Origin: Anaerolineales bacterium
GTDB taxonomy: Bacteria > Chloroflexota > Anaerolineae > Anaerolineales > E44-bin32
Reading direction: 5' to 3'
Length of the DNA stretch: 64,000 nt
Assembly: GCA_041573795.1 (NCBI GenBank)
Contig: JBFFQB010000002.1
Coordinates: 46,749 to 110,748 of the forward strand
Part shown: positions 1,779 to 37,375 of the stretch, in pieces
Layout: each line of letters starts with the position of its first letter
Position numbering within the stretch: the first letter of the stretch is position 1
Notes under the pieces: model-generated
What the model was told of the DNA's origin: nothing
What the model saw: only the letters and a program-made list of their open reading frames with translations
Databases searched by the model: none
Position numbers and translations under genes: made by a program

Positions 1779-1837
1779 CTAGTCAATCAACCTTGTTCTT
1801 GTTTGCCTATTGGCAGGCAGGTATACTCCAACTAAGC

Positions 1838-20701: not shown

Positions 20702-20717
20702 TGGCACACATCTTGCA
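20702..20717 (+). promoter_or_regulatory. sigma-54 (-24/-12) promoter P0 upstream of rpoN
   Basis: TGGCACacatcTTGCA, exact match to TGGCAC-N5-TTGCW with GG-N10-GC spacing. It lies in the trmFO/rpoN divergent gap, 52 nt before the rpoN ATG. Confidence 0.7.
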
Positions 20718-20769: not shown

Positions 20770-22182
20770 ATGTATCAATATCAAGATCAATCACTCAGAC
20801 CCCTGACAACGGCACACTTAGCCCAGACCATGAGTCTGCTTGTTCTCTCGAATATTGAGCTTCGAGACCGGGTCATCTCGGAATTATCCTCCAATCCTGC
20901 CTTAGAGCTGCTCGATGAACGAGTTTGCCCAAGCTGCCACAAACCCTTGGGAACAGGCGCGATTTGTCCTGCCTGCAGCCGTCACCAAGATGCTGAAGGC
21001 GATCCAATCGTCTTCCTATCCCCGCGCGATTCAATTCGCCCCTCGCGCAAGCGCCAGTTAGACGATCAGCCGCTTGATCGCGAACCAGCAGCTCCAGAAG
21101 ACCTTACCACCTATGTCATACGCCAATTGGCCGCAGAACTCCTTCCAGAAGATCGGCGCCTGGCACTCTATATCTTGGCGAGCCTTGATGATGACGGTTT
21201 TCTCAATGATCCGCCTGCGCTGATTGCTCAGGCAACTCGCTCGAGCCTAACGCAGGTACAACGCGTGATTGCACTCATCAATTCCGCTGACCCAATCGGG
21301 CTGGCTACCTCTGGACCAAAACAAGCCTTGCTGATTCAGCTCGAACAGCTTGCCGCAGATCACCCGATTGCCGAGTTGGCACGCGACATGCTGACGGAGA
21401 CTTTCGCGGCATTAGGTCGTAGAGAGTATGACAAAATCGGCCATGAGCTTGAGGTCAAACCCGCCAAGGTGCGCCAAGCGGCAGAATTCATCCACGACAA
21501 TCTAAACCCCTACCCTGCGCGTGCCAACTGGGGATCAGGCCACCACCCCATGTCAGGCGATTCGAACGTTTACCATACACCCGATATCATGGTTACTCAC
21601 AATCCCAATACCGAGCAGGGTCCCTTGGTGGTCGAAATCTTTTCCCCGCTTTCGGGTTGGCTACGAGTAAACCCGCTATTCAAACAAGCCATGGACAGCG
21701 CTTCAGCTGACCAAGCTGAGGATTGGTCCGAGCAGCTCGAAAAGGCTAACCTCTTTGTGAAATGCATCCAGCAGCGCAACAATACGATGCGCCGACTCAT
21801 GCAGCTGCTTGTGTCTCAGCAGGAAACGTTCATCCTAGAAGGTGCCCGCCACTTGAAACCCATGACCAGGGCACAGATTGCTGATCAGGTCGGTGTGCAC
21901 GAATCGACGATTTCACGCGCGGTTGCGAATAAATCCGTTGCGCTTCCAGATGGGCGCATCATCCCATTGGCCAAGTTCTTCGACCGAAGCTTGTCTGTCC
22001 GTGACCGGATAAAGGAAATTGTTCGTAACGAAACTAACCCTCTTACCGACGATCAAATCGTTGCGCTCCTGAAAAAGGATGGGGTTAAAATTGCTCGCAG
22101 AACCGTGGCGAAATATCGGTCGATTGAGGGAATCTTACCGGCGCGGTTGCGGGGTGAGCATAAGCTATCCCAAGCAGCATAA
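20770..22182 (+). CDS. rpoN: RNA polymerase sigma-54 factor RpoN
   Basis: Region I LTTAHLAQTMSLLVLSNIELRDRV, C-terminal HTH and RpoN box ARRTVAKYR. The ORF-track start 20548 overlaps trmFO on the other strand; ATG 20770 is preferred. Confidence 0.9.
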   Translation: MYQYQDQSLRPLTTAHLAQTMSLLVLSNIELRDRVISELSSNPALELLDERVCPSCHKPLGTGAICPACSRHQDAEGDPIVFLSPRDSIRPSRKRQLDDQPLDREPAAPEDLTTYVIRQLAAELLPEDRRLALYILASLDDDGFLNDPPALIAQATRSSLTQVQRVIALINSADPIGLATSGPKQALLIQLEQLAADHPIAELARDMLTETFAALGRREYDKIGHELEVKPAKVRQAAEFIHDNLNPYPARANWGSGHHPMSGDSNVYHTPDIMVTHNPNTEQGPLVVEIFSPLSGWLRVNPLFKQAMDSASADQAEDWSEQLEKANLFVKCIQQRNNTMRRLMQLLVSQQETFILEGARHLKPMTRAQIADQVGVHESTISRAVANKSVALPDGRIIPLAKFFDRSLSVRDRIKEIVRNETNPLTDDQIVALLKKDGVKIARRTVAKYRSIEGILPARLRGEHKLSQAA

Positions 22183-22196
22183 GTAAAGGTAGATCA

Positions 22197-24158
22197 TTGG
22201 CGAGAGATACAACACCCACAAATCCGATCGCACGCTTTTTTAAATCAGAGCCGCATCGTGAACTGTTCGACACACTTGCGGATACGCTCGACAGCGCCGT
22301 CCTGGTTCTCTCCGGGACGGAGCCGCGTTTAATAACCTGCAATCACCAGTTTCTGCTGATGACTGGTTTCGCCCGCAAGGACGTTGAATCACTCTCTCCT
22401 TCTGATCTCTTTACAGAAGTTGAAGGACAGGCTGCCCTCGATAAAATCCTGCAACCCTGGGATACGCCCGATTGTCAGCTGAATGAAGTTCCCATCCGAA
22501 CCCAATCAGGCGAGTTGCTTTGGATCGACCTTCAGGCTTTCTCGGTCACGCCCTCTCATGAGGTTGTCCTCGTACTTTCAAGACCATCGCAAGAACGGGT
22601 GAGTAGTGAAGCACATCAACGCGCAGAAGCTGAGCGCATGTCTTTACTTATGGAAATATCGGATCTTGCCATCGAGAGCGGCGCCGCCACGTTAACTCTG
22701 CTCCTTGAGCAAATCAAGAAACTCCTTTCAGCAAGCTTTGCAGGCATGTATCAGGTTGATCCGAGTTCGCCAGCCTATACATTGGTCGGTACTCTACCCC
22801 CCGCTTTCCCGGAGCAAGTCGACGACAGCGTAATCGGAACCTTACCCAGGCATTCGCGCTGGTCGATTGGACATCGCCCGGAGCATGAGCTCGCCCGTGC
22901 CGCACGCGCAGCTGAGGTCCGTCATCTTCGCACAACCCGAATTGGTGACGAAAGCTCGTGGGTAGGCCTTCTGGTCGTCTGTTGGGATGAGGAGCTCACC
23001 GAAGGGGAAGATATCGAAACCATCATGCAAGTCGCAACAAATTTATGCCACGCCGCGCTGCATGTCGGCCTTCTGCGTTCCAGCACAACTGAGAGCGAAC
23101 TTGTGCTCAATCAGCTTGAGGATCAGATTGAGCATCTTTACGAAGGAATTTCAGACACACTGCTAATCGTAGATTCAGAATTATCCATCATGCGAGCGAA
23201 CGCAGCTCTCGAACGCCTGCTCGGTTTCTCTGCTGAAGAAGTCATCAATCGTCCAGTCCAGGATATCTTGGTAGGACCTGAAGATGTTACGGTGACACTT
23301 TTAGATGCGCTCGGCCATCAACGCGAATCGGAACGATCGAAGCTTGTGCTGCACCATCGCGAGGGAAATCCTTTGCCAATACACCTGCGCGCAGTGCCCT
23401 TAGAGATGGCAGGTGAGACCCAACTGCTCCTCGTCCTCAAGGATCAATCGGAGCAACAAGCGATCGAAGATCAGACAGAAAGTCTGGCGCAGCGGGCCCT
23501 CCTGGGTGAGGTCACTGCTATATTCGCGCATGAAGTTCGCAATCCTATCAATAATATCTCGACTGGCGTTCAACTCATCGCTTCCCGCCTGGGACAGGAT
23601 CATCCGCAATATGAAGCCCTCGATCGCATTCGTACGGAATGCACTCGCTTAGATCAGCTGATGAGCGATGTCCTCTTCTTCGCCCGTCCGTTAGAATTGA
23701 AAATGGAAGAGATCGACCTATCCGAGATGATGGATCGTATCCTGGCTCGTTGGACACCACGTTTTCAACAATCGAAAGTTCGCTGCCAAACCATCTTCCA
23801 AAAGGAGCTTCCGCCTGCATCTGTTGATCCCCGAACGTTCGAGCGCGTACTCGTCAACTTGATCAGTAATGCCCTTGAAGCTATGGCTGATGGGGGTACA
23901 ATCTCCATTTCAATTGGGTTTGCTGAAGAGGGTCCTAAAGATCAGCTGGAGTTAAAGGTCGCCGATACGGGTCCGGGGATCCCGGCAGATAAGATTCAAC
24001 GGATCTTCGACCCCTTCTTCACAACCAAGAAGGATGGCACAGGACTTGGTCTTGCTATTAGCCGTCGGATCATGACTGCTCATCGTGGCACCATTCAGGT
24101 CGAATCATTTCCTGATGCCGGCACGGTTTTCACGATCCATATTCCTGTAGCAGCGTAA
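22197..24158 (+). CDS. soluble multi-PAS sensor histidine kinase (NtrB-like)
   Basis: No TM segments; PAS-like blocks; H-box FAHEVRNPINNI; N/G boxes NLISNALEAM, DTGPGIP, GTGLGLAISR; 14 nt after rpoN. Confidence 0.85.
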   Translation: MARDTTPTNPIARFFKSEPHRELFDTLADTLDSAVLVLSGTEPRLITCNHQFLLMTGFARKDVESLSPSDLFTEVEGQAALDKILQPWDTPDCQLNEVPIRTQSGELLWIDLQAFSVTPSHEVVLVLSRPSQERVSSEAHQRAEAERMSLLMEISDLAIESGAATLTLLLEQIKKLLSASFAGMYQVDPSSPAYTLVGTLPPAFPEQVDDSVIGTLPRHSRWSIGHRPEHELARAARAAEVRHLRTTRIGDESSWVGLLVVCWDEELTEGEDIETIMQVATNLCHAALHVGLLRSSTTESELVLNQLEDQIEHLYEGISDTLLIVDSELSIMRANAALERLLGFSAEEVINRPVQDILVGPEDVTVTLLDALGHQRESERSKLVLHHREGNPLPIHLRAVPLEMAGETQLLLVLKDQSEQQAIEDQTESLAQRALLGEVTAIFAHEVRNPINNISTGVQLIASRLGQDHPQYEALDRIRTECTRLDQLMSDVLFFARPLELKMEEIDLSEMMDRILARWTPRFQQSKVRCQTIFQKELPPASVDPRTFERVLVNLISNALEAMADGGTISISIGFAEEGPKDQLELKVADTGPGIPADKIQRIFDPFFTTKKDGTGLGLAISRRIMTAHRGTIQVESFPDAGTVFTIHIPVAA

Positions 24159-24172
24159 TTCAGGAGAATTTA

Positions 24173-25441
24173 ATGAGTGCGACAGTATTAATCGTCGATG
24201 ACGAAGCACCGGCCAGAAATTTTATTAGCGAGGCTTTAAGTGACGCTGGCTATGAAGCCATTGAGGCGGGGTCCTTAAAAGAGGCCAATAAAGTTATTGA
24301 CACCGGAGCAGCCGATATCATCCTGCTGGATGTCATGTTACCGGATGGCTCTGGGTTGACCCTGCTTGACCGCATATCCATGGAATCCCCTCGCCCGCCA
24401 GTGATCCTGATCACCGCATTCGGTGAGGTTGATACAGCAGTAGAGGCGATGAAGAAGGGTGCTCAGGATTTTCTCCAGAAGCCACTCGATCTCGAGCGAC
24501 TGCAACAAGCAGTCGAGCGATCGTCAGAGGTCGTCTCCCTGCGAAGGGAACTTGATTTACTGCGCCGCTCTTCCACCGGTGATATCGAAATGGTTGTAGG
24601 CGAAACTTCGACGATGAAACAAATTATGCTTGAGGCAGAGAGAGCCGCCTCGGCTGCTGTCTCCGTTCTCATCACCGGTGAAACAGGGACAGGAAAAGAG
24701 GTATTAGCTCGTACGATCCACAGTATAAGCCCGCGCGCCGATAAACCCTTTATCCCCATTAACTGCGCCGCCCTACCGGACACGATGATTGAATCTGAGC
24801 TCTTTGGTCATGAGGCCGGAGCGTTTACAGGAGCACAAAAGCGCAAGCCGGGATTAATCGAAATCGCCGACGGCGGCATTCTTTTCCTGGACGAGATCTC
24901 TTCTACGAGACCTGAAATGCAAGCAAAGCTCCTGCGTGTTCTCGATGAACATAAGTTCCGTCGGGTGGGTGGTGTCAATGAAATTGATGTCGATGTCCAG
25001 ATCCTGGCGGCCTCCAACCGCGATCTTCCCGCCATGATCGGGGAGGGTACTTTCAGGGAGGATCTCTACTACCGCCTTAAGGTCGTTGACCTGCATCTTG
25101 TACCTTTACGCCAGCGCATTAATGACATACCCGCGCTGGTGGGTAACTTTATCCGTCAAATCAACCTCCGTATAGGCGGGATGGTAGAAGGGATCACACC
25201 CCGGGCGATCGATGCACTTAAAGCCCATTCTTGGCCTGGAAACATCCGCGAACTCCGGCATGTCATTGAACGGGCTATATTATTCTGTGATGAGGATATG
25301 ATTGACTTGCCTCATCTACCCCCAGATATCCAGGCGCTTGGAGAGAAACTTTCTTCGCCCACGCAAACCTCCAAGAAGCAAAGCACCGTAAAAAAGACCA
25401 GTGCAACAAAGAAGAAGACAAAGTCCAAGAAGAAATCCTAA
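24173..25441 (+). CDS. sigma-54-dependent response regulator (REC + AAA+ sigma-54 interaction domain) without recognisable C-terminal HTH
   Basis: REC (VLIVDDE...IILLDVMLPDGSG); Walker A GETGTGKE; GAFTGA loop; Walker B ILFLDEI; ESELFGHE. The C-terminus is a Lys/Ser/Thr-rich tail (KKQSTVKKTSATKKKTKSKKKS) instead of a Fis-type HTH. Confidence 0.9.
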   Translation: MSATVLIVDDEAPARNFISEALSDAGYEAIEAGSLKEANKVIDTGAADIILLDVMLPDGSGLTLLDRISMESPRPPVILITAFGEVDTAVEAMKKGAQDFLQKPLDLERLQQAVERSSEVVSLRRELDLLRRSSTGDIEMVVGETSTMKQIMLEAERAASAAVSVLITGETGTGKEVLARTIHSISPRADKPFIPINCAALPDTMIESELFGHEAGAFTGAQKRKPGLIEIADGGILFLDEISSTRPEMQAKLLRVLDEHKFRRVGGVNEIDVDVQILAASNRDLPAMIGEGTFREDLYYRLKVVDLHLVPLRQRINDIPALVGNFIRQINLRIGGMVEGITPRAIDALKAHSWPGNIRELRHVIERAILFCDEDMIDLPHLPPDIQALGEKLSSPTQTSKKQSTVKKTSATKKKTKSKKKS

Positions 25442-25449
25442 GCGCATAA

Positions 25450-25465
25450 TGGCATAGTCCTTGCA
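25450..25465 (+). promoter_or_regulatory. sigma-54 (-24/-12) promoter P1
   Basis: TGGCATagtccTTGCA with GG-N10-GC spacing; 9 nt after the EBP stop and 38 nt before ATG 25504 (GGAGG RBS in between). Confidence 0.65.
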
Positions 25466-25503
25466 ACATTCGCCTTCAGAAGTAATTCACTCTGGAGGCG
25501 AAC

Positions 25504-25836
25504 ATGATTCCCCTATCCTTTAACGATATTCAACTCATAATTGCGGCCTCAATATTCGTGCTGGGTTTCCTGCTGATCTTGATTGGCGCCCTCGTGATGG
25601 TCAGCAGAAGTTACTCTCGCGAAGTTCGGACATTGGCCGCACATACTGCCCGTCTTGGCCAGAAAGGCATTGCACAAGATATCACCGGCCTGGTAAATAG
25701 TGCGACGGAACTGGTTGCCTCCATCAATGCCTTGGTACGGACTGCCAGTGGGATCGGGCTGTTTTTGATCCTGCTGGGCATCACCATGCTTGCAGCCGCT
25801 TATTGGATCATTCAACAAATTCCTTGGACCATCTAA
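25504..25836 (+). CDS. small membrane protein (110 aa, two TM helices flanking a ~50-aa loop)
   Basis: GGAGG RBS; hydrophobic segments IIAASIFVLGFLLILIGALVMV and GIGLFLILLGITMLAAAYWII; first gene after P1. Confidence 0.6.
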   Translation: MIPLSFNDIQLIIAASIFVLGFLLILIGALVMVSRSYSREVRTLAAHTARLGQKGIAQDITGLVNSATELVASINALVRTASGIGLFLILLGITMLAAAYWIIQQIPWTI

Positions 25837-25855
25837 ACCCAGTAAGGGGTAAGTT

Positions 25856-28800
25856 ATGCTCAATGACGCCGCCATCCTCGCACAATTGAAAGAAGCATTC
25901 CAGCCTTCGGAGCTAAGCGCTACTATCACCCGCCTTCAGCGTGTTCCGGAAGTTTGGCAAGCGCTACATGACGGGGATTTTCTCCGCTTCGTGCTCGAAC
26001 ATCCAGAAGAGATCGAATGGACACCCAGCGCAATCGCCGATAGCTGTCTTCTCTATAAACGAGCCAATCAATCTGGAAGCGAGGATTCTTCGTCAAGCCA
26101 TTCGACACAGGCTGTATCAAATCTATTTGATCTGGCGACCGAGGCTCACAGCTTAGCGAAACAACTTAATCATTCGATCGCAGATACGCTGGAGACTCTA
26201 CAACCATCTAGATCGTGTTTCAGCCAGCTTTGCTGTGCCTGGGCGCATATTGATGAAACCTCCAAGGTGATAGAGCAGATCTTAGCCGCACAAGATCGTC
26301 AGATGACCGCCTTTTTGCTGGAAGTCCTTCGCGCCCAGTATGCAGATGCGCAGATACTTGAGATCGTCGAAACCCATGGCCCTGCGTTTGCTCACTATAT
26401 CCCTGAACTGCTGAAAGATGGAGAGAAGGAGATTGCACTCCTGTTGGCTGATCAAGTAAAGGATGATTTATCCGGGTCCTCAACCGGAGATGAGGCATTG
26501 CTGTATGCCTATGCGCAGGCAGTGGGCGGTGACTATGAGGGAGCTCATATCTCCCTTTCCTCTGCCTGGGATAACGCGACAGAAGCTACGGCATTGGTGG
26601 CCGATCAGTTAGCACAGGTCGCACGTCTTGAAGGCAATCCTTCTGTGGAGCTAGAAGCCCGGCGCCAGGCTGTCGAGAGAAGCTTTTCCCCGATCCGGCG
26701 AGCAGCGCTTGCTCGCTCGCTGGTTGAATCTGACCAGGCATATAACGCCTACCAACTGACTTCTCAGGCAGAGAGCATCGAAGAGCGGATAGCTTTCGGT
26801 ATGGCAGCCTTGAAGCAAGGCTTTCACAGCGAAGCATTGAGTGCCTTATCGCAGGTAAAGAATGAAGCGCTGCAGCTCGAGTACAAAGATACTTCCTGGC
26901 TACGTTGGATGGCTGAAGGCTTGAGCAGAAGCGGGGCGCTTGCAGATACGATAGAAACCACAACGTATATCGCCAGACTTTTGCCCCAGGATGAAAACAT
27001 CGCCCTGGAGCTAGCGGAGCTTCTCGAGCGAGCTGGAGATTTATCGGCGGCCGTAACTCAGGCTGAGTTCGCCCTTGCACTGAACCCACAATCAACAAAT
27101 GCTCGCAGAGTTTTAGCGCATACGCTGCGCCTCGATGGTCAAGCGGCAAAAGCTCTCGGATATTTCGAGCAAGTCGTGCAAGATGATCCATCCGTACACT
27201 TCGAGTACTGTGAATGTGCCCTAGAAGCGCAGGAGGATGATCTCGCCGTGGAAATCGCTACAACCCTGATGGGTGAGCATCCAGATTCTGCCATGGCGCA
27301 TTCCTTTTTCGCCCGAGCCAAACATCACCAAGGGGAACACGAAGTGGCGCGAGCCGCCATCGAGAAGGCCATCACCCTCGATAAGAGCAGTGTAGATCCC
27401 TGGCTGGTTCTCGCCGAAATCCTTGTAGCTACCGGCGAAAACGATGCTGCCGGTGAAACGCTGCTTCAGGCCATCCAGATTGCGCCAGAGAATGCCAAGG
27501 CACATCAAGCGCGCGCAGACTGGCTCGCTGCCCAAGATCGTTTCCATGAAGCGCGCGAGCATAGTGCCAGAGCGGTCGAGTTAGATCCAGGTTGCGCATC
27601 ATGGCTCGTCGCTGATGCCAGACTGCTGGCCAAGACCGGTGATCCTCAAGGTGCCCGTGCACGTTTGCAGCAAGCTTACGCGTTACAGCCAAAGAATTGG
27701 GACCTCATTCTTGAACTGGCCCGCAGTTATGAGTCATCTGGCGAGCTCGAGCAAGCTGTTCAGCTCATCGGAGACGCTCCTGGTGAGTTCGATGATGCCT
27801 TCCGCATTGATACTGGTCGCATTTTGATTAAGGCGGGGGTTGATGGAAACACCGAAGCTTTGCAAAAAGGCTTAGACCATTTCAAGCGGGCTCATCCCGA
27901 TGGGGAAACCCTACCGGATCATCTTTTCTGGTCAGCCCGCGCGAATGAGGTTCTGAAAGAATACAACAAATCACTTGGGCAGTACGAAGAATACCTGGCA
28001 CAGTTCGAAGGGCTTAAGCAGCACCGTACGCTCGAGGCGGTTCTGGGTTACTCCCGTGTTTCTTTAGCCCAGGGTAAGCCGGACCAGGTCATCGCTTTCC
28101 TCCAAGCCAATCGAGACAAGTTCCCGGCATCGATCGATGTGGTCAGCCTGCTCGCAGAAGCACAGCTCGCCAATGGCGAGGGGAAACAAGCCTATGAGAC
28201 TGCTAGAGAAGCGATCGCATTGAATCCTGTTTCAGTGGATGCCCATAGGCTCGTGAGCAAGACAGCTGAAGCGATAGGAGACATCCGTACTGCCATCGAT
28301 GCGGAGCAGGAGATTCTCTCTCAACAGCCGGAAACTGGCGCGAATTGGCGCCGCATGGCCCGATTGCACTTCAGCATTAGGGATACCGCCTCAGCCCGTG
28401 CGCACTTGGCTAAAGCAATCCATCTCGATCGCAGCGATGCGAAGTCTCTGGTCGAGCTTGCAGATTTAAGTGCCGAGTTTGATCTCAGCGGCACGGAGCT
28501 ACGCTTGATGAAACGTGCTGGAAAATTAGCACCCAGGGATCCAGGGCTACAGCTTCAGCTCGCTGAAGTGGCTGAGAGCTCGGGCGATTTTGATACTGCT
28601 TACGCAGCATTGATGTGCTGCCTTCAAGAGAAGAATGATGACGTGCAGTTGGTGAAACGAGCTGCAGAAGTGAGCTCTAAGGCCGGGCAGTCAGGACGAT
28701 CAATCGAGCTTTATGAACGCGTCCTGGAGAAAGATCCCGAAGATGCCGTAAGCCTTGTGGCACTAGCTGATACCTTCGAACAAATGGGAGATCCTCGGGC

Positions 28801-30928
28801 AAGTTTGAAGTATTACCAGCAATTGCTTGATCTCGCTACAGAGGAACCTGCGATCCTGGCCAAGATCGCCAGGGCATATCTTGATTTTGAGGATGCAGGT
28901 AAGGCACGCTCGATTATTGAAAGAGCTGTACATCTTCACCCCGATCATGTTGGTATTCAACTTGTTCAGGTCGAAGCATCCCTTCAGGCTGGCGATGACG
29001 AAAAAGCGCTGGAGATTGTAGAAAAAGTCATCGCGCAGTCCGCTCCTGACGCTCACACCCTGGCCCTGGCGGCCTTATGTGCCGTCATGACCGGTGACAT
29101 TGAGCAGGCCAGGGCTGGACTCGATGAAGCACTCCACGAAACCCACTTATCCTCCCAGGCATCGGCGGTCCTTTTGCGAGTTTGCGCCGCTTTGGGTGAA
29201 TGGCGGCTTTACTCCTCGCTGCTGAATGGCATTAGCGGGCTAGCTAAATCATCAGTAAAAGACGCAAGGTTGGCATTGAGGGCACTCCTGCGTGCACGTG
29301 ATTTAGCTTGGCTCCATACAAATTTATTGAACATTCGGGTGAATACGCCCGATGCAAAGGCAACGCAAGCTCGGATAGACAGCCTGTTTCAAGGTATTCC
29401 CACCGACGCGCGATTCATGAATTCGGCCTTCGAGATATTCGACCGATGGCAAATTCAACTCGAAAGCCCTATGTCTGAATTTGATGCCACCTTCGATCAA
29501 CTTTCCCACACCGAGCAGCAGGAGCTCATCCAGGCTGCGGCGATGGGGTTGATCAAAGCCAATCGCCCTTCCAAAGCACTCAGCTTATTGGATTCTCATC
29601 CACCGCTTGGCACCCAGCGGGGCTATCATGCGCTGTTGACAAGCATAGCGGCTCAGCAAGCAGATCAGCCCGCACGGGCAAAAGACTCTGCTGAACGAGC
29701 AACACGCTTTGCCGAGACGCGCCCAAGTGGTTCCTATCTCCTGGGTTCCCAGGCTCACGCAGAATCCGATATGGAGAGCGCAATTACTGCCATTAACGCC
29801 GCCTTGGCAATATGGTCAAATGAGCCCGCATGGCATGCTGATCTCGCTCGCATCTACATGCTTGGTGAGCGCAAGGAAGCCGCCCTTCCACACTTACAGC
29901 AAGCTGTTGAGCTGGATCCGCATGATTCCGAGTATCTGCTCGCACTTGCCCGAGCATACCGCAATGCCGGTGAATGGTCTCAAGCCGAAACAACGTATGC
30001 GCGCTGTTTGCAGGATTCACCATCAGCAGCACAGGTTTGGAAAGAAGCGGCCCAAGTTGCTTTAGTTAATGGGAATGCTTCCCAGGCCGAAAGCTGGTTT
30101 GAAAGAGCCTGCAGTTTGGCGCCCTCCGATGCTGTCTGCCTGATGGGATCGGCACAAGCTGCCCTACTTATGGATCAACCAAAACTGGCTGCCGATCGCG
30201 CCCAAAGCGCATACAAGCTTGCTCCAAATGAACCACAAGTTCTGGCTGGCTTCGCCGAGGTATTGGCAGTGCAAGGAAAAATGGAGAAGGCTATCCAGGC
30301 CTATGATCGAGCGTTGAAGATCTCCGGGGGAGATCCCCAAGTTCAGCTAGCGCGGAGCAGATTATTGCTGAAGAGTGGCCAGTATACCGATGCCATCAAT
30401 GACATTAATGCTGTCATTGCTACAGATGATTCTGATACCGACGCCTGGGCTCTACTAGCGGAAGCATATGAGCAGGCTTCACAAATGGACGAGGCACTCA
30501 ACGCAATCAATCACGCCATCGCAGATTCACCTCGTTCTGGCCCATACCGCCTGATCCAAGGACGAATGTATCGTAAGGCTGGTCAGCTGGATCAGGCCTT
30601 AAAAGTCTTGCGCGAGCTTGAGAATGACGAGCCCGACAACGGCTCACTACCTGCAGAACTTGGGAACGTCTATGAAGCCCGCAGAGAGACGGATGCGGCG
30701 CTTGAAGCCTACCTACGGGCAGTTGCACTCAATCCTGACGATATTCAATCCCACATGAGCGCTGGGATCATTTTAAAGGGCTTGAAATCCTACGAGCATG
30801 CCGCGCAGATGTTTGAACGCGTGGTCACAGCTCGACCTAACGACCCTAAAGCCTTACACCAACTCGCTGCGGTACGTGCATTGCAACTTGTACATGGTGG
30901 CATCGAGACCCAGGTGGTGACGACATGA
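25856..30928 (+). CDS. giant tetratricopeptide-repeat (TPR) protein, 1690 aa
   Basis: Uninterrupted ORF. From ~aa 300 onward there are dozens of 34-aa TPR-like units (recurring A..Y..AL.L.P....A...LA). The N-terminal ~230 aa are non-repetitive. Confidence 0.85.
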   Translation: MLNDAAILAQLKEAFQPSELSATITRLQRVPEVWQALHDGDFLRFVLEHPEEIEWTPSAIADSCLLYKRANQSGSEDSSSSHSTQAVSNLFDLATEAHSLAKQLNHSIADTLETLQPSRSCFSQLCCAWAHIDETSKVIEQILAAQDRQMTAFLLEVLRAQYADAQILEIVETHGPAFAHYIPELLKDGEKEIALLLADQVKDDLSGSSTGDEALLYAYAQAVGGDYEGAHISLSSAWDNATEATALVADQLAQVARLEGNPSVELEARRQAVERSFSPIRRAALARSLVESDQAYNAYQLTSQAESIEERIAFGMAALKQGFHSEALSALSQVKNEALQLEYKDTSWLRWMAEGLSRSGALADTIETTTYIARLLPQDENIALELAELLERAGDLSAAVTQAEFALALNPQSTNARRVLAHTLRLDGQAAKALGYFEQVVQDDPSVHFEYCECALEAQEDDLAVEIATTLMGEHPDSAMAHSFFARAKHHQGEHEVARAAIEKAITLDKSSVDPWLVLAEILVATGENDAAGETLLQAIQIAPENAKAHQARADWLAAQDRFHEAREHSARAVELDPGCASWLVADARLLAKTGDPQGARARLQQAYALQPKNWDLILELARSYESSGELEQAVQLIGDAPGEFDDAFRIDTGRILIKAGVDGNTEALQKGLDHFKRAHPDGETLPDHLFWSARANEVLKEYNKSLGQYEEYLAQFEGLKQHRTLEAVLGYSRVSLAQGKPDQVIAFLQANRDKFPASIDVVSLLAEAQLANGEGKQAYETAREAIALNPVSVDAHRLVSKTAEAIGDIRTAIDAEQEILSQQPETGANWRRMARLHFSIRDTASARAHLAKAIHLDRSDAKSLVELADLSAEFDLSGTELRLMKRAGKLAPRDPGLQLQLAEVAESSGDFDTAYAALMCCLQEKNDDVQLVKRAAEVSSKAGQSGRSIELYERVLEKDPEDAVSLVALADTFEQMGDPRASLKYYQQLLDLATEEPAILAKIARAYLDFEDAGKARSIIERAVHLHPDHVGIQLVQVEASLQAGDDEKALEIVEKVIAQSAPDAHTLALAALCAVMTGDIEQARAGLDEALHETHLSSQASAVLLRVCAALGEWRLYSSLLNGISGLAKSSVKDARLALRALLRARDLAWLHTNLLNIRVNTPDAKATQARIDSLFQGIPTDARFMNSAFEIFDRWQIQLESPMSEFDATFDQLSHTEQQELIQAAAMGLIKANRPSKALSLLDSHPPLGTQRGYHALLTSIAAQQADQPARAKDSAERATRFAETRPSGSYLLGSQAHAESDMESAITAINAALAIWSNEPAWHADLARIYMLGERKEAALPHLQQAVELDPHDSEYLLALARAYRNAGEWSQAETTYARCLQDSPSAAQVWKEAAQVALVNGNASQAESWFERACSLAPSDAVCLMGSAQAALLMDQPKLAADRAQSAYKLAPNEPQVLAGFAEVLAVQGKMEKAIQAYDRALKISGGDPQVQLARSRLLLKSGQYTDAINDINAVIATDDSDTDAWALLAEAYEQASQMDEALNAINHAIADSPRSGPYRLIQGRMYRKAGQLDQALKVLRELENDEPDNGSLPAELGNVYEARRETDAALEAYLRAVALNPDDIQSHMSAGIILKGLKSYEHAAQMFERVVTARPNDPKALHQLAAVRALQLVHGGIETQVVTT

Positions 30929-33588
30929 TTGACCGCAGTACTTTCATCAAAATCCTTCACACATCCCTGAGCGCAGGTAGATCAGATTTCGCACGGTTCA
31001 CCGCAATGGACTGGCTTGAAGCCTGGCCTGGGGATGCGAGCATACAGACCTACCTGGCCCGGGCCGAGATGGAATTGGGCTTGATTGACAATGCGATTGC
31101 GCGAGTTGATCAAGTCATCATGGTCGATCCAGAACAAATCGATGCCTATGAGATCAAGGCGAGCGCCTTACGATCGAAGGGCGCGATCGAGCAATCCAGG
31201 ATCTATCATGCTTGTGCACAGATCTTAAAAATGAATCCGCTCGAACCAGGTCAAGCACCTACATGGGCGGTCCATTTGCAGGAAGCCATGGGGCATGTTC
31301 GAGCAGCTGACTATGACGCGGCGGTAGCAAAAGCCTCGATCTCCCTTACCGCCGATCCTCAGTTAATCCTGCCGACCTATTCCTTGATGTCAATTCAGCG
31401 CACAGCTGGGAAAGATGCTGATGCCCTTGCGGTGGCGCAAAATGGCTATGACCGTTGGCCTGAATGTGTCGCTTTCTTGCTGATTCTTGGTCAATCGTTA
31501 GTCGACCAGGGTGAGTCGCAAGCGGGGATCGAACTCCTGCATCATGCAGCAAAGAACGATCCCAGTGGTCAAATTACGAAGCGCTTCTGGGGGGAACATC
31601 ATGCCTATGCTGATTTATGGCCATTGAACTTGCAAGCTGAGTTGAGTAGGCCCATCCCTGCCGATGTTGCTACAAGGCTCGGTGATAATCAGCTGGCTGG
31701 ATCGATTCGGGAGAAAAGCCCCCAGCCCGAGCCCAAACCCACAGCGTGTGACTGTGACACTCATACGATCGTAAAGAAAGATGATCAAGTAGCACCCGAG
31801 CGTAAGCAGCAGGCCAAAATAAACCTGGAAGCTCTACCTTCACCGAAACCCTGGGAAGCTTTTAAAGGACCGAATGCAAGTGAAGCTGGCATTAATCTCA
31901 ACCCAACCCAGGTGCCTGAGACTTTGGTAGAGATCGAGAATGAGTTCAGGCAACTTGCTCAAAGATTAAACGCAAGGAAAAGGGGCAGGGATGAAGATGG
32001 TCGCTCCCCAGCTTATATCGTTCTGTCGAGCCGCTCACATATGCTACAGCGCTTCGAAGAAGCTGGCTTCCAATCCATTGATGAACGTATATTGAGCCTG
32101 GTTGAAAGTGTTCGTCGGCGCTATGGTTGGACAGCATACCGGATCTATATTGATGATCCCAGGACACTCGAACCCTTCGGGCTGTCTCCTGTCGATCCAG
32201 GCAACGCCTGGCAAATCAAGCTGCGTCTGGCCGACCTCGATCGGGCCCTAAGCGCACGGGGCGAGATGATCGGAGCACTATTGATCGTCGGTGGAAACGG
32301 CATCATCCCATTTCACCTGTTACCCAACCCAACCGATGATGACGATGAAGTCATCCCCTCGGATAATCCTTATGCCACTACGGATGAAAATTACTTCATC
32401 CCGGAATGGCCTGTGGGGCGTCTCCCCGGTGAGGAAGAATCGGAGTTTATTCTCCAGCAGTTGGACTATGCTCTCAAAAGCCACAATATCCAGGCTGCAC
32501 CCAGACCAACGATTGGACGCTTGTTCCGACTCCTGGGGTTTGGATTTCTCCGCATGCTCGCACCAAGCGTGAAGACGCTTGGCTATTCCGCCAGTATTTG
32601 GCGCAAATCTTCCTTCGCCGTATTCAAGACGATTGGGGATCCCAAGAACCTGATCACCTCTCCACCGATTGAAGCAACAAAGCTGCCTTCCGAGGCGATG
32701 CGACCGGTGCGACTATCCTATTTCAATTTGCATGGACTGGAGGACGCGCCTGAATGGTATGGGCAACGTGATCCTGCAAAAGACCACGAAGCCATAACGG
32801 AATTTCCCATCGCGCTCCGCCCAATCGATGTTGTTAACAGCGGTCGAGCGCCCAAGGTCGTGTTTACGGAGGCCTGTTACGGAGCGAATAGTATCGGTAA
32901 AACGAGTGAAACCGCATTAAGCTTAAAATTTCTAACCTCCGGGAGCCGGGCTGTTATTGGTTCAACCAAGATCTCCTATGGATCAATCCGACCTCCCCTT
33001 ATCGCGGCTGATCTTCTGGGTCAGCTCTTCTGGCAATTTCTCAATCAGCGCCTGCCTGTGGGTGAGGCACTTCGCCGAGCCAAGATCAAACTGGCAACCG
33101 AAATGCACCAACGACAGGGGTATCTCGACGGGGAAGATCAGAAGACTTTGATTTCGTTTGTTCTATATGGAGATCCTCTCTTCCAACCCAACCCATCAAA
33201 CCCGCATCCAGGGGAAAAGTCGGTCATTCGTCGGGTCAAGCGACCCTCCAATATGAAAACGGCTTGCGCCCTTGGTGGTAAGTCCATCTCTGAAGATGAG
33301 ATTTCCCCGGTGACAATGAAACGGATTGAACACCTCGTTGCCCAATACCTGCCGGGAATGCAGGAAGCTGTGTGCAGCATTCACAATCAGCACATAGAAT
33401 GCCGCGGCGGCGATCATGTTTGCCTTTCCCAGCAGTTCGATCAGAAGTCGATTCAACAGTCACCGGTTGGTTCCATGGTTATTACCCTTTCGAAGCATAT
33501 TGCTGATGGCCAACGACGGCATCCGCATTTTGCCCGTCTTACCCTGGATTCCCAGGGTAAGGTCATGAAGCTGGCTGTTTCGCGCTAA
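30925..33588 (+). CDS. TPR domain + peptidase C25-like (gingipain-like, clan CD) cysteine protease domain + C-terminal PepSY-like module
   Basis: ATGA overlap with the upstream TPR gene. C25-like block LLIVGGNGIIPF...SDNPYATTDENYFIPEWPVGRLPGEE. Candidate catalytic His in FNLHGLEDAPEWYG (CAT 32731-32733) and Cys in VVFTEACYGAN (TGT 32875-32877). Confidence 0.65.
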   Translation: MIDRSTFIKILHTSLSAGRSDFARFTAMDWLEAWPGDASIQTYLARAEMELGLIDNAIARVDQVIMVDPEQIDAYEIKASALRSKGAIEQSRIYHACAQILKMNPLEPGQAPTWAVHLQEAMGHVRAADYDAAVAKASISLTADPQLILPTYSLMSIQRTAGKDADALAVAQNGYDRWPECVAFLLILGQSLVDQGESQAGIELLHHAAKNDPSGQITKRFWGEHHAYADLWPLNLQAELSRPIPADVATRLGDNQLAGSIREKSPQPEPKPTACDCDTHTIVKKDDQVAPERKQQAKINLEALPSPKPWEAFKGPNASEAGINLNPTQVPETLVEIENEFRQLAQRLNARKRGRDEDGRSPAYIVLSSRSHMLQRFEEAGFQSIDERILSLVESVRRRYGWTAYRIYIDDPRTLEPFGLSPVDPGNAWQIKLRLADLDRALSARGEMIGALLIVGGNGIIPFHLLPNPTDDDDEVIPSDNPYATTDENYFIPEWPVGRLPGEEESEFILQQLDYALKSHNIQAAPRPTIGRLFRLLGFGFLRMLAPSVKTLGYSASIWRKSSFAVFKTIGDPKNLITSPPIEATKLPSEAMRPVRLSYFNLHGLEDAPEWYGQRDPAKDHEAITEFPIALRPIDVVNSGRAPKVVFTEACYGANSIGKTSETALSLKFLTSGSRAVIGSTKISYGSIRPPLIAADLLGQLFWQFLNQRLPVGEALRRAKIKLATEMHQRQGYLDGEDQKTLISFVLYGDPLFQPNPSNPHPGEKSVIRRVKRPSNMKTACALGGKSISEDEISPVTMKRIEHLVAQYLPGMQEAVCSIHNQHIECRGGDHVCLSQQFDQKSIQQSPVGSMVITLSKHIADGQRRHPHFARLTLDSQGKVMKLAVSR

Positions 33589-33603
33589 GCCACGAGAGGG
33601 GCA

Positions 33604-33619
33604 TGGCACGCAACTTGCA
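33604..33619 (+). promoter_or_regulatory. sigma-54 (-24/-12) promoter P2 upstream of orf426-ftsZ
   Basis: TGGCACgcaacTTGCA, exact consensus with GG-N10-GC spacing. It lies in the 57-nt gap after the protease gene, 26 nt before ATG 33646 (GAAGGA RBS). Confidence 0.75.
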
Positions 33620-33645
33620 CCATAGTTGCGAGAAGGAAAATTGCC

Positions 33646-34926
33646 ATGTCCCTCAGCCAGCAACAACTCGGTTTTCACTATTATCCCGATACAGATCACT
33701 ATAGTGATTCAGATTTAAACACCTGGCTCCCGATACTCGAGAGTGCCGGCGCTAGCTGGTTGACGCTGCAGGCAAAGGGGAGCAAGAACATCCCTGAGCA
33801 CTTCCTTGCTGCGCTCAAGGCAAGTGGCATTCAGCCGATCATTCATATTTGCGAACCGATTGGATCATTGCGTATGGCGCAGGTCTACACAGCCTTAAAG
33901 ACCTACGCCGATGCCGGTGTCAATTACGTGCTCTTTTACGATCGACCGAATATGCGGGCATCATGGCCCGCATCCACCTGGAGCCATGAATCTTTGATAA
34001 GTCGCTACGTGGATGGCCTGCTTCCGATACTGGAGGCACAGCTCGAGATGGGCATGCTGCCAACCTTACCCCCGCTCGAGCCTGGAGGCGATTACTGGGA
34101 TACTGCCTTTCTGGAGTCCCTCCTCGCTCTGATGCAAAAAAGTGTCGATGCAGCGATTATGGACAAGCTCACGCTCTCGATCTACATGTGGACGTATGGC
34201 AGACCAGTCGATTGGGGACAAGGTGGACAGGTAGCCTGGCCTGATGCCCGGCCGTATCGTTCCCCTATGGGCTCCCAGGATCAGCGTGGCTTCCAGATTA
34301 ATGAGTGGTACCAAGAAATCGCACGGAAAATTCTCGGACGCACCTTACCGGTACTGGTTGTGGGGGGAGGCGCGGGTCCATCGGAAGCTTACGCCACCAC
34401 AGAAGCGCGACAGCTTGGCAACAACGAGGTCGCCCGTCATCTGGCGCAAGAAGGGCTTCCAGAGGAGATCCTCAATTTCAACTTTTACCCCCTTGCCACA
34501 GCCGAAAATCACCAGGATTATCCTGCTGCTTGGTATATCGCCCCCGTCGAAAAAGTCGTGCCCGACCCGTCCGATGAGCACGCGGTAGTCGCTCCCTTAG
34601 AAGCGCAGGCTCAAAAGAAGGGCATTGAGCACTATGTGCTTTTAGGATTTAGCAACCGGATGAACGGCCTTGATGTTTGGAATGCCATTGCCCCTCCGAT
34701 TATGAGTACTCGGGCGACTGTCGGTTTTTCGCTTGAAGAAGCCAAGCAAGCTGTTCGTGTGAGCATCGTTGGCGATTACGATACATTCCCGGCAATGATC
34801 GAAGATCAACTGAGAGCAAACGGCACAGAAACTGAACGCTTTGAAAAGTGGGACACGGATGAATTCCTACTTGCTGCCTCTACCTGGGCAACAAAGTCCA
34901 CGGCAACAGGAGTCGAAGATGAGTGA
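33646..34926 (+). CDS. hypothetical protein (426 aa), possibly a TIM-barrel glycosidase-like fold; translationally coupled to ftsZ
   Basis: Clean ORF behind P2. Alternating beta/alpha-like pattern (GFHYYP, WLTLQA, QPIIHI, NYVLFYDRPN, LPVLVVGGG). Its stop overlaps the ftsZ start by 8 nt (ATGAGTGA). Confidence 0.65.
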   Translation: MSLSQQQLGFHYYPDTDHYSDSDLNTWLPILESAGASWLTLQAKGSKNIPEHFLAALKASGIQPIIHICEPIGSLRMAQVYTALKTYADAGVNYVLFYDRPNMRASWPASTWSHESLISRYVDGLLPILEAQLEMGMLPTLPPLEPGGDYWDTAFLESLLALMQKSVDAAIMDKLTLSIYMWTYGRPVDWGQGGQVAWPDARPYRSPMGSQDQRGFQINEWYQEIARKILGRTLPVLVVGGGAGPSEAYATTEARQLGNNEVARHLAQEGLPEEILNFNFYPLATAENHQDYPAAWYIAPVEKVVPDPSDEHAVVAPLEAQAQKKGIEHYVLLGFSNRMNGLDVWNAIAPPIMSTRATVGFSLEEAKQAVRVSIVGDYDTFPAMIEDQLRANGTETERFEKWDTDEFLLAASTWATKSTATGVEDE

Positions 34927-36052
34927 AATGGGTACCTACGAACCTCTAGATTTTGCCTACCCTCCCAAGGAGCCCGCACGCGCCCTGGGCGAGGCCAAGA
35001 TTAAAGTTCTCGGACTCGGCGGTGGAGGCTCAAATGCGATCAATCGCATGATCGAGCTTGGTGTCGCTGGTGTCGATTTCATCGCCGCCAACACCGATCG
35101 ACAGGCGCTCGCATCCAGTCTGGCACCGGTCCGCCTCCAACTCGGGCCGCGCATCACCAGAGGATTGGGCGCTGGCGGTAATCCAAAGACCGGGGCTGCC
35201 GCAGCAATGGAGAGCAGCCGTGAAATCGCCAGCGCGCTTGCCGGTGCTGACATGGTATTCATCACGGCCGGCATGGGCGGCGGAACCGGTACAGGATCAG
35301 CGGCTATCGCTGCGGAGATCGCCCGTGAAATCGGGGCGGTTGTCGTAGCTGTGGTCACGATGCCATTCAGTTTTGAGATGAGCAAACGAGCTAAAAACGC
35401 TTTTGAGGGGGTCAAGCAGCTTCAACCCCATACGCATACGTTAATTACCGTGCCGAATGATAAGCTACTCCAGATTGTTCCACGCGACTTAAGCCTCGAA
35501 ATCGCCTTCCGACTGGCGGATGACGTCCTTCGCCAGGGGGTACAGGGTATCGCTGAATTGATCACCCGCCCCGGCATGATTAACGTCGACTTTGCCCATG
35601 TGCGTGAGCTCATGCTGCGAGGCGGCGGCGCCTATATGGCCATTGGTCTCGGGAAAGGTGAGGACAAAGCCAATGCTGCCGTTCATCAAGCCCTACACCA
35701 CCCCCTCCTCGAAATGGACAGCATCGACACCGCCAGCGGCGTCCTGGTGCATTTCACAGGCGGTGAGGATCTTACCCTTTATGAAGTCGGTGATGCCGTG
35801 ACGAATTTACGGCAATCGCTTTCCCCGGATGCGGACGTGATCCTGGGCGCTACCACGCAAAAATCGATGAATGGGCGGGCTCAAGCAATCTTGATCTTCA
35901 CCGGTGTTGGTGGCCGTCCGATGACATCAGCGGTGGCGGCTGAGGCTCAAGTCGAGCTCGAGGCGGTGGCAGCCCCCGTGATGCAAGCGTCGCAAGATCT
36001 GGATCTACCGACTTTCCTAAGACGTAGGGTCTCGACCGGGTCAGGGGGTTAA
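34919..36052 (+). CDS. ftsZ: cell division GTPase FtsZ
   Basis: IKVLGLGGGGSNAINRM, tubulin signature GGGTGTGSAAIAAEIA, T7 loop NVDFAHV, C-terminal peptide DLDLPTFLRRR. The ORF opens at 34841, but ATG 34919 has an AGGAG RBS and the canonical N-terminus. Confidence 0.95.
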   Translation: MSEMGTYEPLDFAYPPKEPARALGEAKIKVLGLGGGGSNAINRMIELGVAGVDFIAANTDRQALASSLAPVRLQLGPRITRGLGAGGNPKTGAAAAMESSREIASALAGADMVFITAGMGGGTGTGSAAIAAEIAREIGAVVVAVVTMPFSFEMSKRAKNAFEGVKQLQPHTHTLITVPNDKLLQIVPRDLSLEIAFRLADDVLRQGVQGIAELITRPGMINVDFAHVRELMLRGGGAYMAIGLGKGEDKANAAVHQALHHPLLEMDSIDTASGVLVHFTGGEDLTLYEVGDAVTNLRQSLSPDADVILGATTQKSMNGRAQAILIFTGVGGRPMTSAVAAEAQVELEAVAAPVMQASQDLDLPTFLRRRVSTGSGG

Positions 36053-36056
36053 GCAC

Positions 36057-36290
36057 GTGAAAACTGCTGCGCTTACGAAAGTTAAGCAAGAAGTCTCGAA
36101 GAAATTCCCTGAAATGGATGGCGTCAGGCCGACCATTCGGAGTCAGGGAGCGAAGGAACGTGGAGAGGAGCAATTTCTGCTCACGTTCAAAGGGAAGGCC
36201 GATCTGCCCGGGGGCCGAAAGATCAGCCGAGTTGTACGTGTCGTCGCAGACGAGCGGGGACGCATACTTAAGTTAAGCACATCAAAATGA
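36057..36290 (+). CDS. small basic protein (77 aa) with PepSY-like pattern
   Basis: GTG start 4 nt after the ftsZ stop, with a GGGGG RBS. The sequence KVKQEVSKKFPEMDGVRPTI...FLLTFKG...RVVRVVADERGRILKLS fits the PepSY pattern and resembles the C-terminus of the protease gene. Confidence 0.5.
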   Translation: MKTAALTKVKQEVSKKFPEMDGVRPTIRSQGAKERGEEQFLLTFKGKADLPGGRKISRVVRVVADERGRILKLSTSK

Positions 36291-36496
36291 TCATGGATAA
36301 ACAAATCGATAATCTCAATATGATGCTACGTATCTTTTTCTGGCGACTGGCAGCCAATCTGACCGGCGCCGCTGTCCAAAATCAGCACATGCTGCGCCGT
36401 GCGGTCTGGATCGCGCCGATTGTGCTGGCTGGCTTAACCGCCTATTTCCTGGGCCGCATGTTTGGTACCTTGCTGCTCTGGACGCTAGCACTGTAA
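36287..36496 (+). CDS. small membrane protein (69 aa)
   Basis: ATGA overlap with the preceding ORF; hydrophobic segments IFFWRLAANLTGAAV and VWIAPIVLAGLTAYFLGRMFGTLLLWTLAL. Confidence 0.45.
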   Translation: MIMDKQIDNLNMMLRIFFWRLAANLTGAAVQNQHMLRRAVWIAPIVLAGLTAYFLGRMFGTLLLWTLAL

Positions 36497-36517
36497 GCCA
36501 ACCTCCTTTCCCTCGGT

Positions 36518-37375
36518 ATGGCTTCGTTGCCGCCGGCAGACGCCCGGAGTAAAATCCGGGCGTCTGCACGTATTATTAACATGCGAAACAATATGCGATC
36601 AAAGACACCGGCTACATACATCCTCTTCCTCATTTTTGTCTGCTTCAGCGCTGGTGTCCTCAGCGTGGTCCTTCGGCCGGGTCAATTGCTTACCAGCCTC
36701 AAGCCTCCGGATTCCCCTACCCCTTCCCCCACACCGGGCGATAACACCGCTGAACTTCCATTATTTGTGGATGATGGCACGATCACGATCCTGATCCTAG
36801 GCGTTGATCGCATTGCCGATCCGGAGGGTAAGCTTCTGGCGGTTTGGCTCCTGACCTTCCATCCGCCAAATAAGGAATTGACGGTCTTGGGTTTACCCCT
36901 GGACTTGCCTATCGCTACAGACCAACCATCGATTGCAGAATCTTTCGACCTCTGGAATCCGCCCGACTATGGCGCTGGCTTTATCAATCAACTCAACGCC
37001 TTTGCACCCTCCCCCCTCTATGGGTTTGTCGCGCTGGACGAGCATGGCTTCGCTGCATTGCTAGATTACTTTGGCGGCGTGGACCTTGATGATCAACTCC
37101 TGGAGGGATCTTCAGTCATCGGGAGTTTGAGACTGACCTACGAGAATCCACAGGCTTCTTTACGGCTTCAATCCCGCATCTTAGAAAGCTTGAGGACTCG
37201 GGTAAATCAGATTGGATCGACACCTGAATTGACCCAGCTTACGTCCTTATCTCCAATCCATGCCTATACCTCACCCTCCCCACCCGAATTGGCCACGCTC
37301 GCAATCCCGCTTCTGCCACTTCACCCGGAGAACATTACAATCACGACTTACCCATCTGACTCGAATGAACCATGA
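36518..37375 (+). CDS. LCP (LytR-CpsA-Psr)-like protein with N-terminal TM anchor; catalytic arginines apparently not conserved
   Basis: TM YILFLIFVCFSAGVLSVVL. LCP-like blocks ILILGVD, LAVWLLTFHPPNKELTVLGLPLDL, YGFVALDEHGFAALLDYFGGVDLD. The true start may be ATG 36581. Confidence 0.5.
   Translation: MASLPPADARSKIRASARIINMRNNMRSKTPATYILFLIFVCFSAGVLSVVLRPGQLLTSLKPPDSPTPSPTPGDNTAELPLFVDDGTITILILGVDRIADPEGKLLAVWLLTFHPPNKELTVLGLPLDLPIATDQPSIAESFDLWNPPDYGAGFINQLNAFAPSPLYGFVALDEHGFAALLDYFGGVDLDDQLLEGSSVIGSLRLTYENPQASLRLQSRILESLRTRVNQIGSTPELTQLTSLSPIHAYTSPSPPELATLAIPLLPLHPENITITTYPSDSNEP

Follow-up and report, generated by a model that had tools for sequence, protein, structure and literature searches.

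The DNA studied here is a 64-kb stretch (64,000 nt) of contig JBFFQB010000002.1 from an Anaerolineales bacterium, hereafter the window. Every gene from position 20770 to 36496 of the window is on the + strand. This region contains ftsZ, immediately preceded by a gene designated orf426, together with the genes of a sigma-54 system: sigma-54 itself (rpoN), a soluble PAS histidine kinase, and a REC-AAA+ activator. This cognate machinery is located 8–13 kb upstream of the element that is the subject of this work, a putative sigma-54 promoter directly before orf426-ftsZ, designated P2.

P2 is the 16-mer TGGCACGCAACTTGCA, read at 33604–33619 on the + strand in the 57-nt gap between the stop codon of an 887-aa open reading frame (ORF), at 33588, and the ATG at 33646. 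The motif is separated from this ATG by 26 nt. All 11 specified bases of the pattern TGGCAC-N5-TTGCW are matched, and the GG and GC dinucleotides are exactly 10 nt apart. If position −12 is assigned to the C of GC (33618), transcription is predicted to start at 33630. The predicted leader is 16 nt long and carries a ribosome-binding site (RBS), AGAAGGA (33631–33637), 8 nt from the ATG. Judged by its sequence, P2 has every property expected of a sigma-54 promoter.

The window contains two exact copies of the pattern TGGCAC-N5-TTGCA, at 20702 and 33604, both on the + strand, versus 0.02 ± 0.14 occurrences expected from 100 dinucleotide-preserving shuffles, none of which reached two matches. When up to one mismatch is allowed, four matches are found versus 1.34 expected. 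The two additional sites are at 25450 (+), corresponding to the promoter P1 described below, and at 3502–3517 (−). The latter, TGGCACTAACATTGCC, matches 10 of the 11 bases and is antisense within a gene of the GH3 family (1793–4627, +). It is probably due to chance, given that about 1.3 one-mismatch matches are expected per window. A consensus scan reported no sigma-70-like hexamer pair in the P2 gap. These data agree with an earlier note made on this DNA from the letters alone, which had described a perfect sigma-54 consensus at 33604–33619, a start site at about 33629–33630 in the 57-nt gap with a leader of about 16 nt carrying GAAGGA, and no convincing sigma-70 pair in the same gap. The note had placed the end of orf426 at 34918, which is incorrect: the last base of its stop codon is 34926, and the gene thus overlaps the ftsZ ATG (34919).

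Conservation of the P2 element among Anaerolineae

An alignment of 25 members of the orf426 family was used to collect 80 loci from 80 species-representative genomes of Anaerolineae. For each locus, we retained as candidate P2 the best −24/−12 match within 250 nt upstream of the orf426 homologue, with the GG/GC core at the correct spacing. An element of the form GGCA[CT]-N5-TTGC[AT] was identified just upstream of the orf426 homologue in all 80 loci, in each case with at least 9 of the 11 bases, and mostly at 25–33 nt from the start codon. These loci cover a broad range of divergence, with identities from 64% down to 36% for orf426 and from 89% down to 52% for FtsZ.

Among the motif-anchored sites, the positions outside the selection are nearly invariant: C4 (81/81), A5 (80/81), T12 and T13 (81/81 each), and A16 (78/81). 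The spacer position C11, which is an N in the search pattern, is a C in 72 of the 81 sites (89%). The consensus that Barrios and colleagues reportedly established in 1999 is TGGCACG-N4-TTGCW. P2 shares with it the 10-nt GG/GC spacing and has exact TGGCAC and TTGCA blocks, whereas this lineage shows its own preferences for the C before TTGC and for [T/C]C after TTGCA. The P2 blocks reach about 2 bits per position versus less than 0.45 bits for all flanking positions, and a second alignment agrees with this profile. The conserved part of the region consists of the two sigma-54 blocks at a fixed 10-nt spacing, with a free spacer.

The strand distribution of the motif over the 1.22 Mb of loci is strongly biased. 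Matches of at least 10/11 are found 143 times on the gene strand versus none on the opposite strand, and 127 of these 143 strong matches are located at P2 or at one of the sites P0, P1, and P3 described below. Matches of 9/11 number 79 on the gene strand versus 51 on the opposite strand. At the opposite-strand rate (51 per 1.22 Mb), about 0.9 chance matches are predicted over the 80 upstream regions, versus 80 observed. These counts rule out chance and make a generic conserved-sequence explanation of P2 unlikely. One might still regard P2 as a functionless coincidence, as one-mismatch matches are not rare in the window. However, such a coincidence would have to account both for two exact matches where almost none is expected and for the conservation of the element at every locus. 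Together with the strand bias and the position profile, this conservation effectively refutes that reading, to which we give a negligible probability.

The conserved 16-mer could also be the binding site of another regulator or an RNA structure located between operons, and not a promoter. In the window, a 6-bp inverted repeat (GCAACT/AGTTGC) surrounds the −12 element. However, the corresponding hairpin is in register in only 2 of the 81 loci and Rfam gave no match in the cluster, and the RNA-structure reading of the gap was rejected on these grounds. More generally, what is conserved is a pair of sigma-54 blocks at fixed spacing around a free spacer. Furthermore, the element invariably lies a short distance before a start codon, on the strand of the gene, and it also precedes rpoN and the TPR operon, next to a sigma-54 gene. 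A role as regulator site or RNA structure is very improbable on this evidence.

One of the loci, L013 (JAIWHF010000034.1), belongs to a metagenome-assembled genome (MAG) labelled "Methanosarcinales archaeon". It holds the complete Anaerolineae cluster, with an FtsZ 75% identical to that of the window, and the contig is most likely mis-binned. Homologue searches for a cultured carrier of the cluster gave MAG or metagenome proteins alone.

The sigma-54 module and the transcription of ftsZ

The features of the cluster are listed in table 1. The first promoter, P0, is kept in six of six genome loci. We also surveyed metagenomes by scanning contigs centred on rpoN through an rpoN alignment (loci L081–L160). 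P0 was present in the 78 loci having enough upstream DNA, without exception and usually at 35–56 nt from the start. In these loci, the divergent trmFO lies upstream, while the kinase and activator genes, the small ORF, and the TPR genes follow downstream. The position of P0 before the rpoN-kinase-activator operon implies positive autoregulation and prompts the question of what primes the loop. P1 is found upstream of the small membrane ORF in 43 of 43 loci of the main clade, to which the window belongs, at 35–41 nt from the start.

Table 1. Features of the sigma-54 and ftsZ cluster, in coordinates of the window
Feature	Position	Strand	Remarks
P0, exact sigma-54 element TGGCACacatcTTGCA	20702..20717	+	Divergent trmFO/rpoN intergenic region, 52 nt before the rpoN ATG
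rpoN (sigma-54, 470 aa)	20770..22182	+	Pfam domains Sigma54_AID, CBD, and DBD; RpoN box ARRTVAKYR
PAS histidine kinase, soluble	22197..24158	+	Pfam; no transmembrane or hydrophobic segment
REC-AAA+ sigma-54 activator	24173..25441	+	REC, Sigma54_activat (E 3e-68), and AAA_lid_14; HEAGAFTGA; no helix-turn-helix (HTH) domain (Pfam)
P1, sigma-54 element TGGCATagtccTTGCA	25450..25465	+	One mismatch; 9 nt beyond the activator stop; the small membrane ORF starts 38 nt downstream
110-aa membrane protein	25504..25836	+	Two or three hydrophobic segments; first gene of the P1 operon
1690-aa TPR protein	25856..30928	+	P1 operon
887-aa TPR and Peptidase_C25-like protein	30925..33588	+	Last gene of the P1 operon, directly upstream of P2
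P2, sigma-54 −24/−12 element TGGCACgcaacTTGCA	33604..33619	+	Sequence, motif counts, and conservation at orthologous loci
orf426	33646..34926	+	First gene of the P2 operon; no Pfam or NCBIfam match
ftsZ (377 aa)	34919..36052	+	ATG overlaps the orf426 stop in ATGAGTGA; own GGAG RBS
orf77	36057..36290	+	Small conserved gene, 4 nt past the ftsZ stop; independent gene calls agree
orf69	36287..36496	+	Small gene, hydrophobic tail, 4-nt overlap with the orf77 stop; independent gene calls agree
Perfect 13-bp G+C-rich hairpin GCAGACGCCCGGA...TCCGGGCGTCTGC	36536..36567	+	After orf69; candidate operon terminator

The 91 homologues of the activator, with a median of 391 aa, stop directly after the AAA lid and have no DNA-binding domain; the GAFTGA motif is present in 83 of them. 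The precomputed Pfam annotation of the activator of one divergent locus (L166) is likewise devoid of an HTH domain. The lack of a DNA-binding domain is thus a feature of the lineage. With such an activator, no enhancer 80–150 nt upstream is expected at P2. In the motif-anchored loci, nothing is conserved in the 60 nt upstream of P2, and the DNA beyond is coding. The window activator is the only one to carry a 30-aa lysine-rich tail, KKQSTVKKTSATKKKTKSKKKS, which might confer non-specific DNA affinity. In sigma-54, the cysteines C53, C56, C66, and C69 form a CxxC...CxxC arrangement (residues 53–69) that looks like a zinc-ribbon insertion. It separates the activator-interacting region from the core-binding domain and is invariant in five sequences whose overall identity is only 47–49%.

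In the main clade (about 55 loci), the gene order is that of the window: activator, small ORF, TPR, TPR/C25, orf426, ftsZ, orf77, orf69, and orf285. The orf426 stop and the ftsZ start overlap in 48 of the approximately 55 genomes, by 8 nt in 35 of them, window included, and by 4 nt in the other 13. This is a signature of co-transcription and translational coupling. Downstream, tblastn detected orf77 homologues directly after ftsZ in 71 loci and orf69 homologues in 38, and orf69 is probably the last gene of the operon. An information profile of the 160 nt before the ftsZ ATG in 48 genomes revealed no conserved promoter-like element, only the GGAG RBS being in register.

A second arrangement is found in a divergent clade whose FtsZ proteins are 52–62% identical (L047, L053, L057, L060, L061, L066, L068–L070, L072–L076, L078, L079, and L166). 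Here the order is rpoN, kinase, activator, one gene on the opposite strand, orf426, ftsZ, orf77, orf69, an orf285-like gene, small ORF, TPR, and TPR/C25. Because the opposite-strand gene separates the activator from orf426, read-through from P0 into orf426-ftsZ is impossible in this clade. Directly before ftsZ, at its junction with orf426, 16 of 16 divergent-clade loci and L166 carry a second sigma-54 site, P3 (L047, 11344; L053, 11284; L060, 1499; L061, 11317; L069, 11338; L072, 11212; L073, 1455; L074, 11311; L166, 11371; and eight more loci). Conversely, in the clade of the window, where the two genes overlap, there is no P3. Thus, where orf426 and ftsZ are apart, the element before the uncoupled ftsZ is again a sigma-54 site. 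Comparison of L074 and L166 with positions 20770–37375 of the window shows the same members in two orders, the TPR genes following ftsZ in the divergent clade. The linkage of this gene set despite its changed order argues for a functional unit.

On this evidence, P2 is very likely a functional sigma-54 promoter serving ftsZ, and a four-gene operon orf426-ftsZ-orf77-orf69 driven by P2 is the best explanation of the gene arrangement. The earlier note had proposed that a sigma-54 promoter serves orf426-ftsZ, that P1 is also of the sigma-54 type, and that ftsZ would depend on P2 or on read-through from P1, and had suggested examining the 16-mer in related genomes. The 16-mer proved to be kept in position and strand at 80/80 orthologous loci, and P1 at all 43 main-clade loci. 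The first proposal is supported by this conservation of P2, by the adjacent genes for sigma-54, kinase, and GAFTGA activator, by the gene overlaps, and by P3. The extension of the operon to orf77 and orf69, the location of rpoN behind the same motif, and the activator lacking a DNA-binding domain are additional to that note.

A functional P2 could nevertheless be a conditional booster, the housekeeping transcription of ftsZ coming from an unrecognised sigma-70-type promoter within orf426 or further upstream, in which case division would be independent of sigma-54. In the bacteria studied, essential division genes usually have several promoters, as is generally known for ftsAZ of Escherichia coli and Bacillus subtilis. 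Furthermore, rpoN behind its own sigma-54 promoter implies some basal transcription in the cluster, and a weak sigma-70-like match (9/12) is present inside orf426 at 34493–34521. However, a match of this quality is at chance level, as are sigma-70-like sites over the 20–38 kb region in general (12 found versus 13.7 expected). In addition, it is only the RBS that is conserved before ftsZ in the main clade, and the conserved element before the uncoupled ftsZ of the divergent clade is a sigma-54 site and of no other kind. We regard the booster role as a possibility of real weight, although short of an even chance.

Alternatively, the ftsZ of the cluster might be a specialised extra copy, involved for instance in filament fragmentation or differentiation, with the housekeeping ftsZ located elsewhere. 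Its control by sigma-54 would then be uninformative on normal division. Its location outside a division and cell wall (dcw) cluster is in line with this possibility: the 64-kb window contains no ftsA, mur, or other dcw gene, and neither ftsA nor a mur gene lies within 10 kb in L166. Its partner proteins are moreover lineage-specific and of unknown function. The protein itself, conversely, is a canonical FtsZ in its sequence. It has the Tubulin and FtsZ_C domains (Pfam), scores 375.9 bits against TIGR00065 (equivalog cutoff 295.2), and matches solved structures of division FtsZs in the PDB with E values of 1e-70 to 1e-89. This FtsZ is also present in the datasets ERR14940463, SRR34093462, SRR14116337, SRR29257557, and JGI 3300041074. 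Its C-terminal tail, DLDLPTFLRRR, corresponds to the known D-I-P-x-F-L-R motif, the membrane-anchor-binding peptide of FtsZ. This peptide is usually missing from divergent FtsZ paralogues. No second ftsZ was found in approximately 2.2 Mb of Anaerolineae locus DNA, a weak test of copy number. Within Chloroflexota, a survey of the FtsZ family reported extra, CetZ-like copies only for Dehalococcoidia (PMC9871819). We therefore consider a specialised extra copy unlikely.

Several points weigh against P2 as the functional sigma-54 promoter of the operon. The start site at P2, the binding of sigma-54, and the dependence on the activator are all predictions from the DNA. In eight to ten loci, the motif is only 10–15 nt from the assigned start codon, so that either the transcript is almost leaderless there or the start codon has been misplaced. 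If rpoN is the only copy, its location behind a sigma-54 promoter calls for another basal source of sigma-54, and none was identified. As the rules of housekeeping promoters in Chloroflexota are poorly known, the sigma-70 scan is a weak, uninformative negative, and a sigma-70-type promoter may lie inside orf426, out of register between genomes. The exclusive dependence of ftsZ on sigma-54, with sigma-54 promoters as the sole source of ftsZ mRNA and this ftsZ as the only copy in a large part of the class Anaerolineae, is a tentative proposal, somewhat more likely to be wrong than right.

A proposed signal-gated circuit

We propose that the three same-strand sigma-54 promoters of the 16-kb cluster form one regulon. 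P0 would drive rpoN and the genes of the PAS kinase and the activator; P1 those of the small membrane protein, the giant TPR protein, and the TPR/C25-like protein; and P2 orf426-ftsZ-orf77-orf69. The sigma-54 holoenzyme would sit as closed complexes at P0, P1, and P2. The soluble PAS kinase would sense an intracellular cue and phosphorylate the REC domain of the activator. Because it has no DNA-binding domain, the activator would engage the holoenzyme from solution, and it would spend ATP to open the three promoters. The circuit would include a positive feedback, since sigma-54, the kinase, and the activator would themselves be expressed from P0. Transcripts from P0 and P1 would be expected to start at about 20728 and 25476, respectively. 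P2 would yield orf426, FtsZ, orf77, and orf69, possibly with a contribution of read-through from P1, as no terminator is predicted before P2. The enhancer-independent mode of activation and the physiological cue are, like the other steps, inferred.

Sigma-54 promoters have essentially no basal activity without an ATPase activator. As they are silent without it, the location of ftsZ behind one of them would let a signal gate division, which would not be constitutive. If the circuit operates as proposed, ftsZ would be made mainly or only while the two-component signal is on. A signal-dependent activator thus probably turns on division in these filamentous bacteria. If, in addition, sigma-54 promoters were the sole source of ftsZ mRNA and this ftsZ the only copy, a cytoplasmic PAS kinase would license septum formation through an enhancer-independent activator, with sigma-54, kinase, and activator amplifying their own expression. 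This would constitute an all-or-none "commit to divide" switch on the core division gene, and sigma-54 would be essential in these organisms. Such a switch could underlie their long multicellular filaments and their very slow, episodic division.

Parts of this circuit resemble known systems. FlgR and CtcC activate the sigma-54 holoenzyme from solution. FlgS-FlgR of Helicobacter and Campylobacter, CtcB-CtcC of Chlamydia, and Rrp2 of Borrelia combine, as does the present module known from sequence, a kinase and a REC-AAA+ GAFTGA activator without C-terminal HTH domain with a few −24/−12 promoters. However, their targets are flagellar genes, late-developmental genes, or rpoS, whereas here they are ftsZ and genes for lineage-specific TPR, C25-like, and TIM-barrel proteins. 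Unlike in these systems, the sigma-54 gene is here part of the module, behind its own type of promoter, and the module and its regulon are contiguous. A −24/−12 promoter before rpoN and a positive feedback are also features of the Rhizobium etli rpoN2 gene, under the control of NifA. In rhizobia, a second, constitutive rpoN primes the loop, whereas we see a single rpoN here, with P0 present throughout the lineage. Finally, other bacteria also couple ftsZ transcription to an alternative sigma factor or to a response regulator, which makes division follow a programme of the cell, as shown by the sigma-H promoter of B. subtilis ftsAZ, by Streptomyces ftsZ2p, and by CtrA and DnaA in Caulobacter. 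Those promoters are of the sigma-70 family and are added to constitutive ones, whereas the one described here is a sigma-54 promoter.

Nitrogen use, flagella, and the cell envelope are the functions with which sigma-54 has been associated so far. In a comparative study published in 2011, COG category D was not enriched near sigma-54 genes, activators, or promoters, and sigma-54 was recorded in "some Chloroflexi" only (PMC3162934). A survey of sigma-54 regulons published in 2025 does not mention Chloroflexota, and cell division is represented there only by ParA/MinD COGs (PMC12316311). Neither of these two broad surveys gives ftsZ or a Chloroflexota gene as a target. In the literature on sigma-54 or RpoN in connection with ftsZ, Anaerolineae, or Chloroflexi, we found no description of a sigma-54-dependent ftsZ. 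The class of promoter is thus known, whereas ftsZ as its target and a conserved, self-contained circuit of this kind have not been described before. Control of ftsZ by sigma-54 throughout a class would be surprising to specialists of either cell division or sigma-54. The proposal provides a concrete hypothesis for the control of septation in the abundant but poorly understood filamentous Anaerolineae. It is testable because the circuit is compact and conserved, with a single sigma factor, kinase, and activator and only three or four promoters.

Genes accompanying ftsZ

The lineage-specific proteins tied to FtsZ, namely orf426, orf77, orf69, the giant TPR protein, and the TPR/C25-like protein, are candidate division factors. 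On the basis of genomic linkage, orf426, orf77, and orf69 are candidate partners of FtsZ. The orf426 family has more than 1,000 homologues, and every member with a source name is from Anaerolineae or Chloroflexota. The protein has many invariant Trp, Gly, and Pro residues, an EPGGDYWD motif, and no signal peptide. Its AlphaFold2 model, with a mean predicted local distance difference test (pLDDT) score of 78.6, comprises a TIM barrel (residues 1–290) and a C-terminal alpha/beta domain. Foldseek retrieved only generic, weak matches (GH128, GH26, GH5, DERA, and TIM, with TM-scores normalised to the target of 0.5–0.6). As Pfam and NCBIfam matches are lacking and the structural neighbours are generic, no specific function can be claimed for orf426. 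In the absence of a signal peptide, a glycoside-hydrolase-like fold would be cytoplasmic and translationally coupled to FtsZ. For orf77, the AlphaFold2 model is confident (pLDDT 89.5) and consists of a helix and a four-stranded sheet, but no PDB match better than E 0.1 was obtained, and the model points to no function.

In the 887-aa protein encoded directly upstream of P2, N-terminal TPRs are followed by a match to the C-terminal part of the Peptidase_C25 catalytic domain (gingipain, caspase-like), and a signal peptide is absent. This protein may have a caspase fold, reside in the cytoplasm, and be regulated together with ftsZ. At the other end of the cluster, the hairpin that follows orf69 is probably the terminator of the operon. 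It falls inside the longest reading of the next ORF, for which the gene callers disagree (285 or 260 aa). With the hairpin as terminator, this gene would start at 36593. The remainder of the window is ordinary chromosome, with smpB/tmRNA, hflX, plsX, fabF, sucCD, and scpB, and it contains no second activator.

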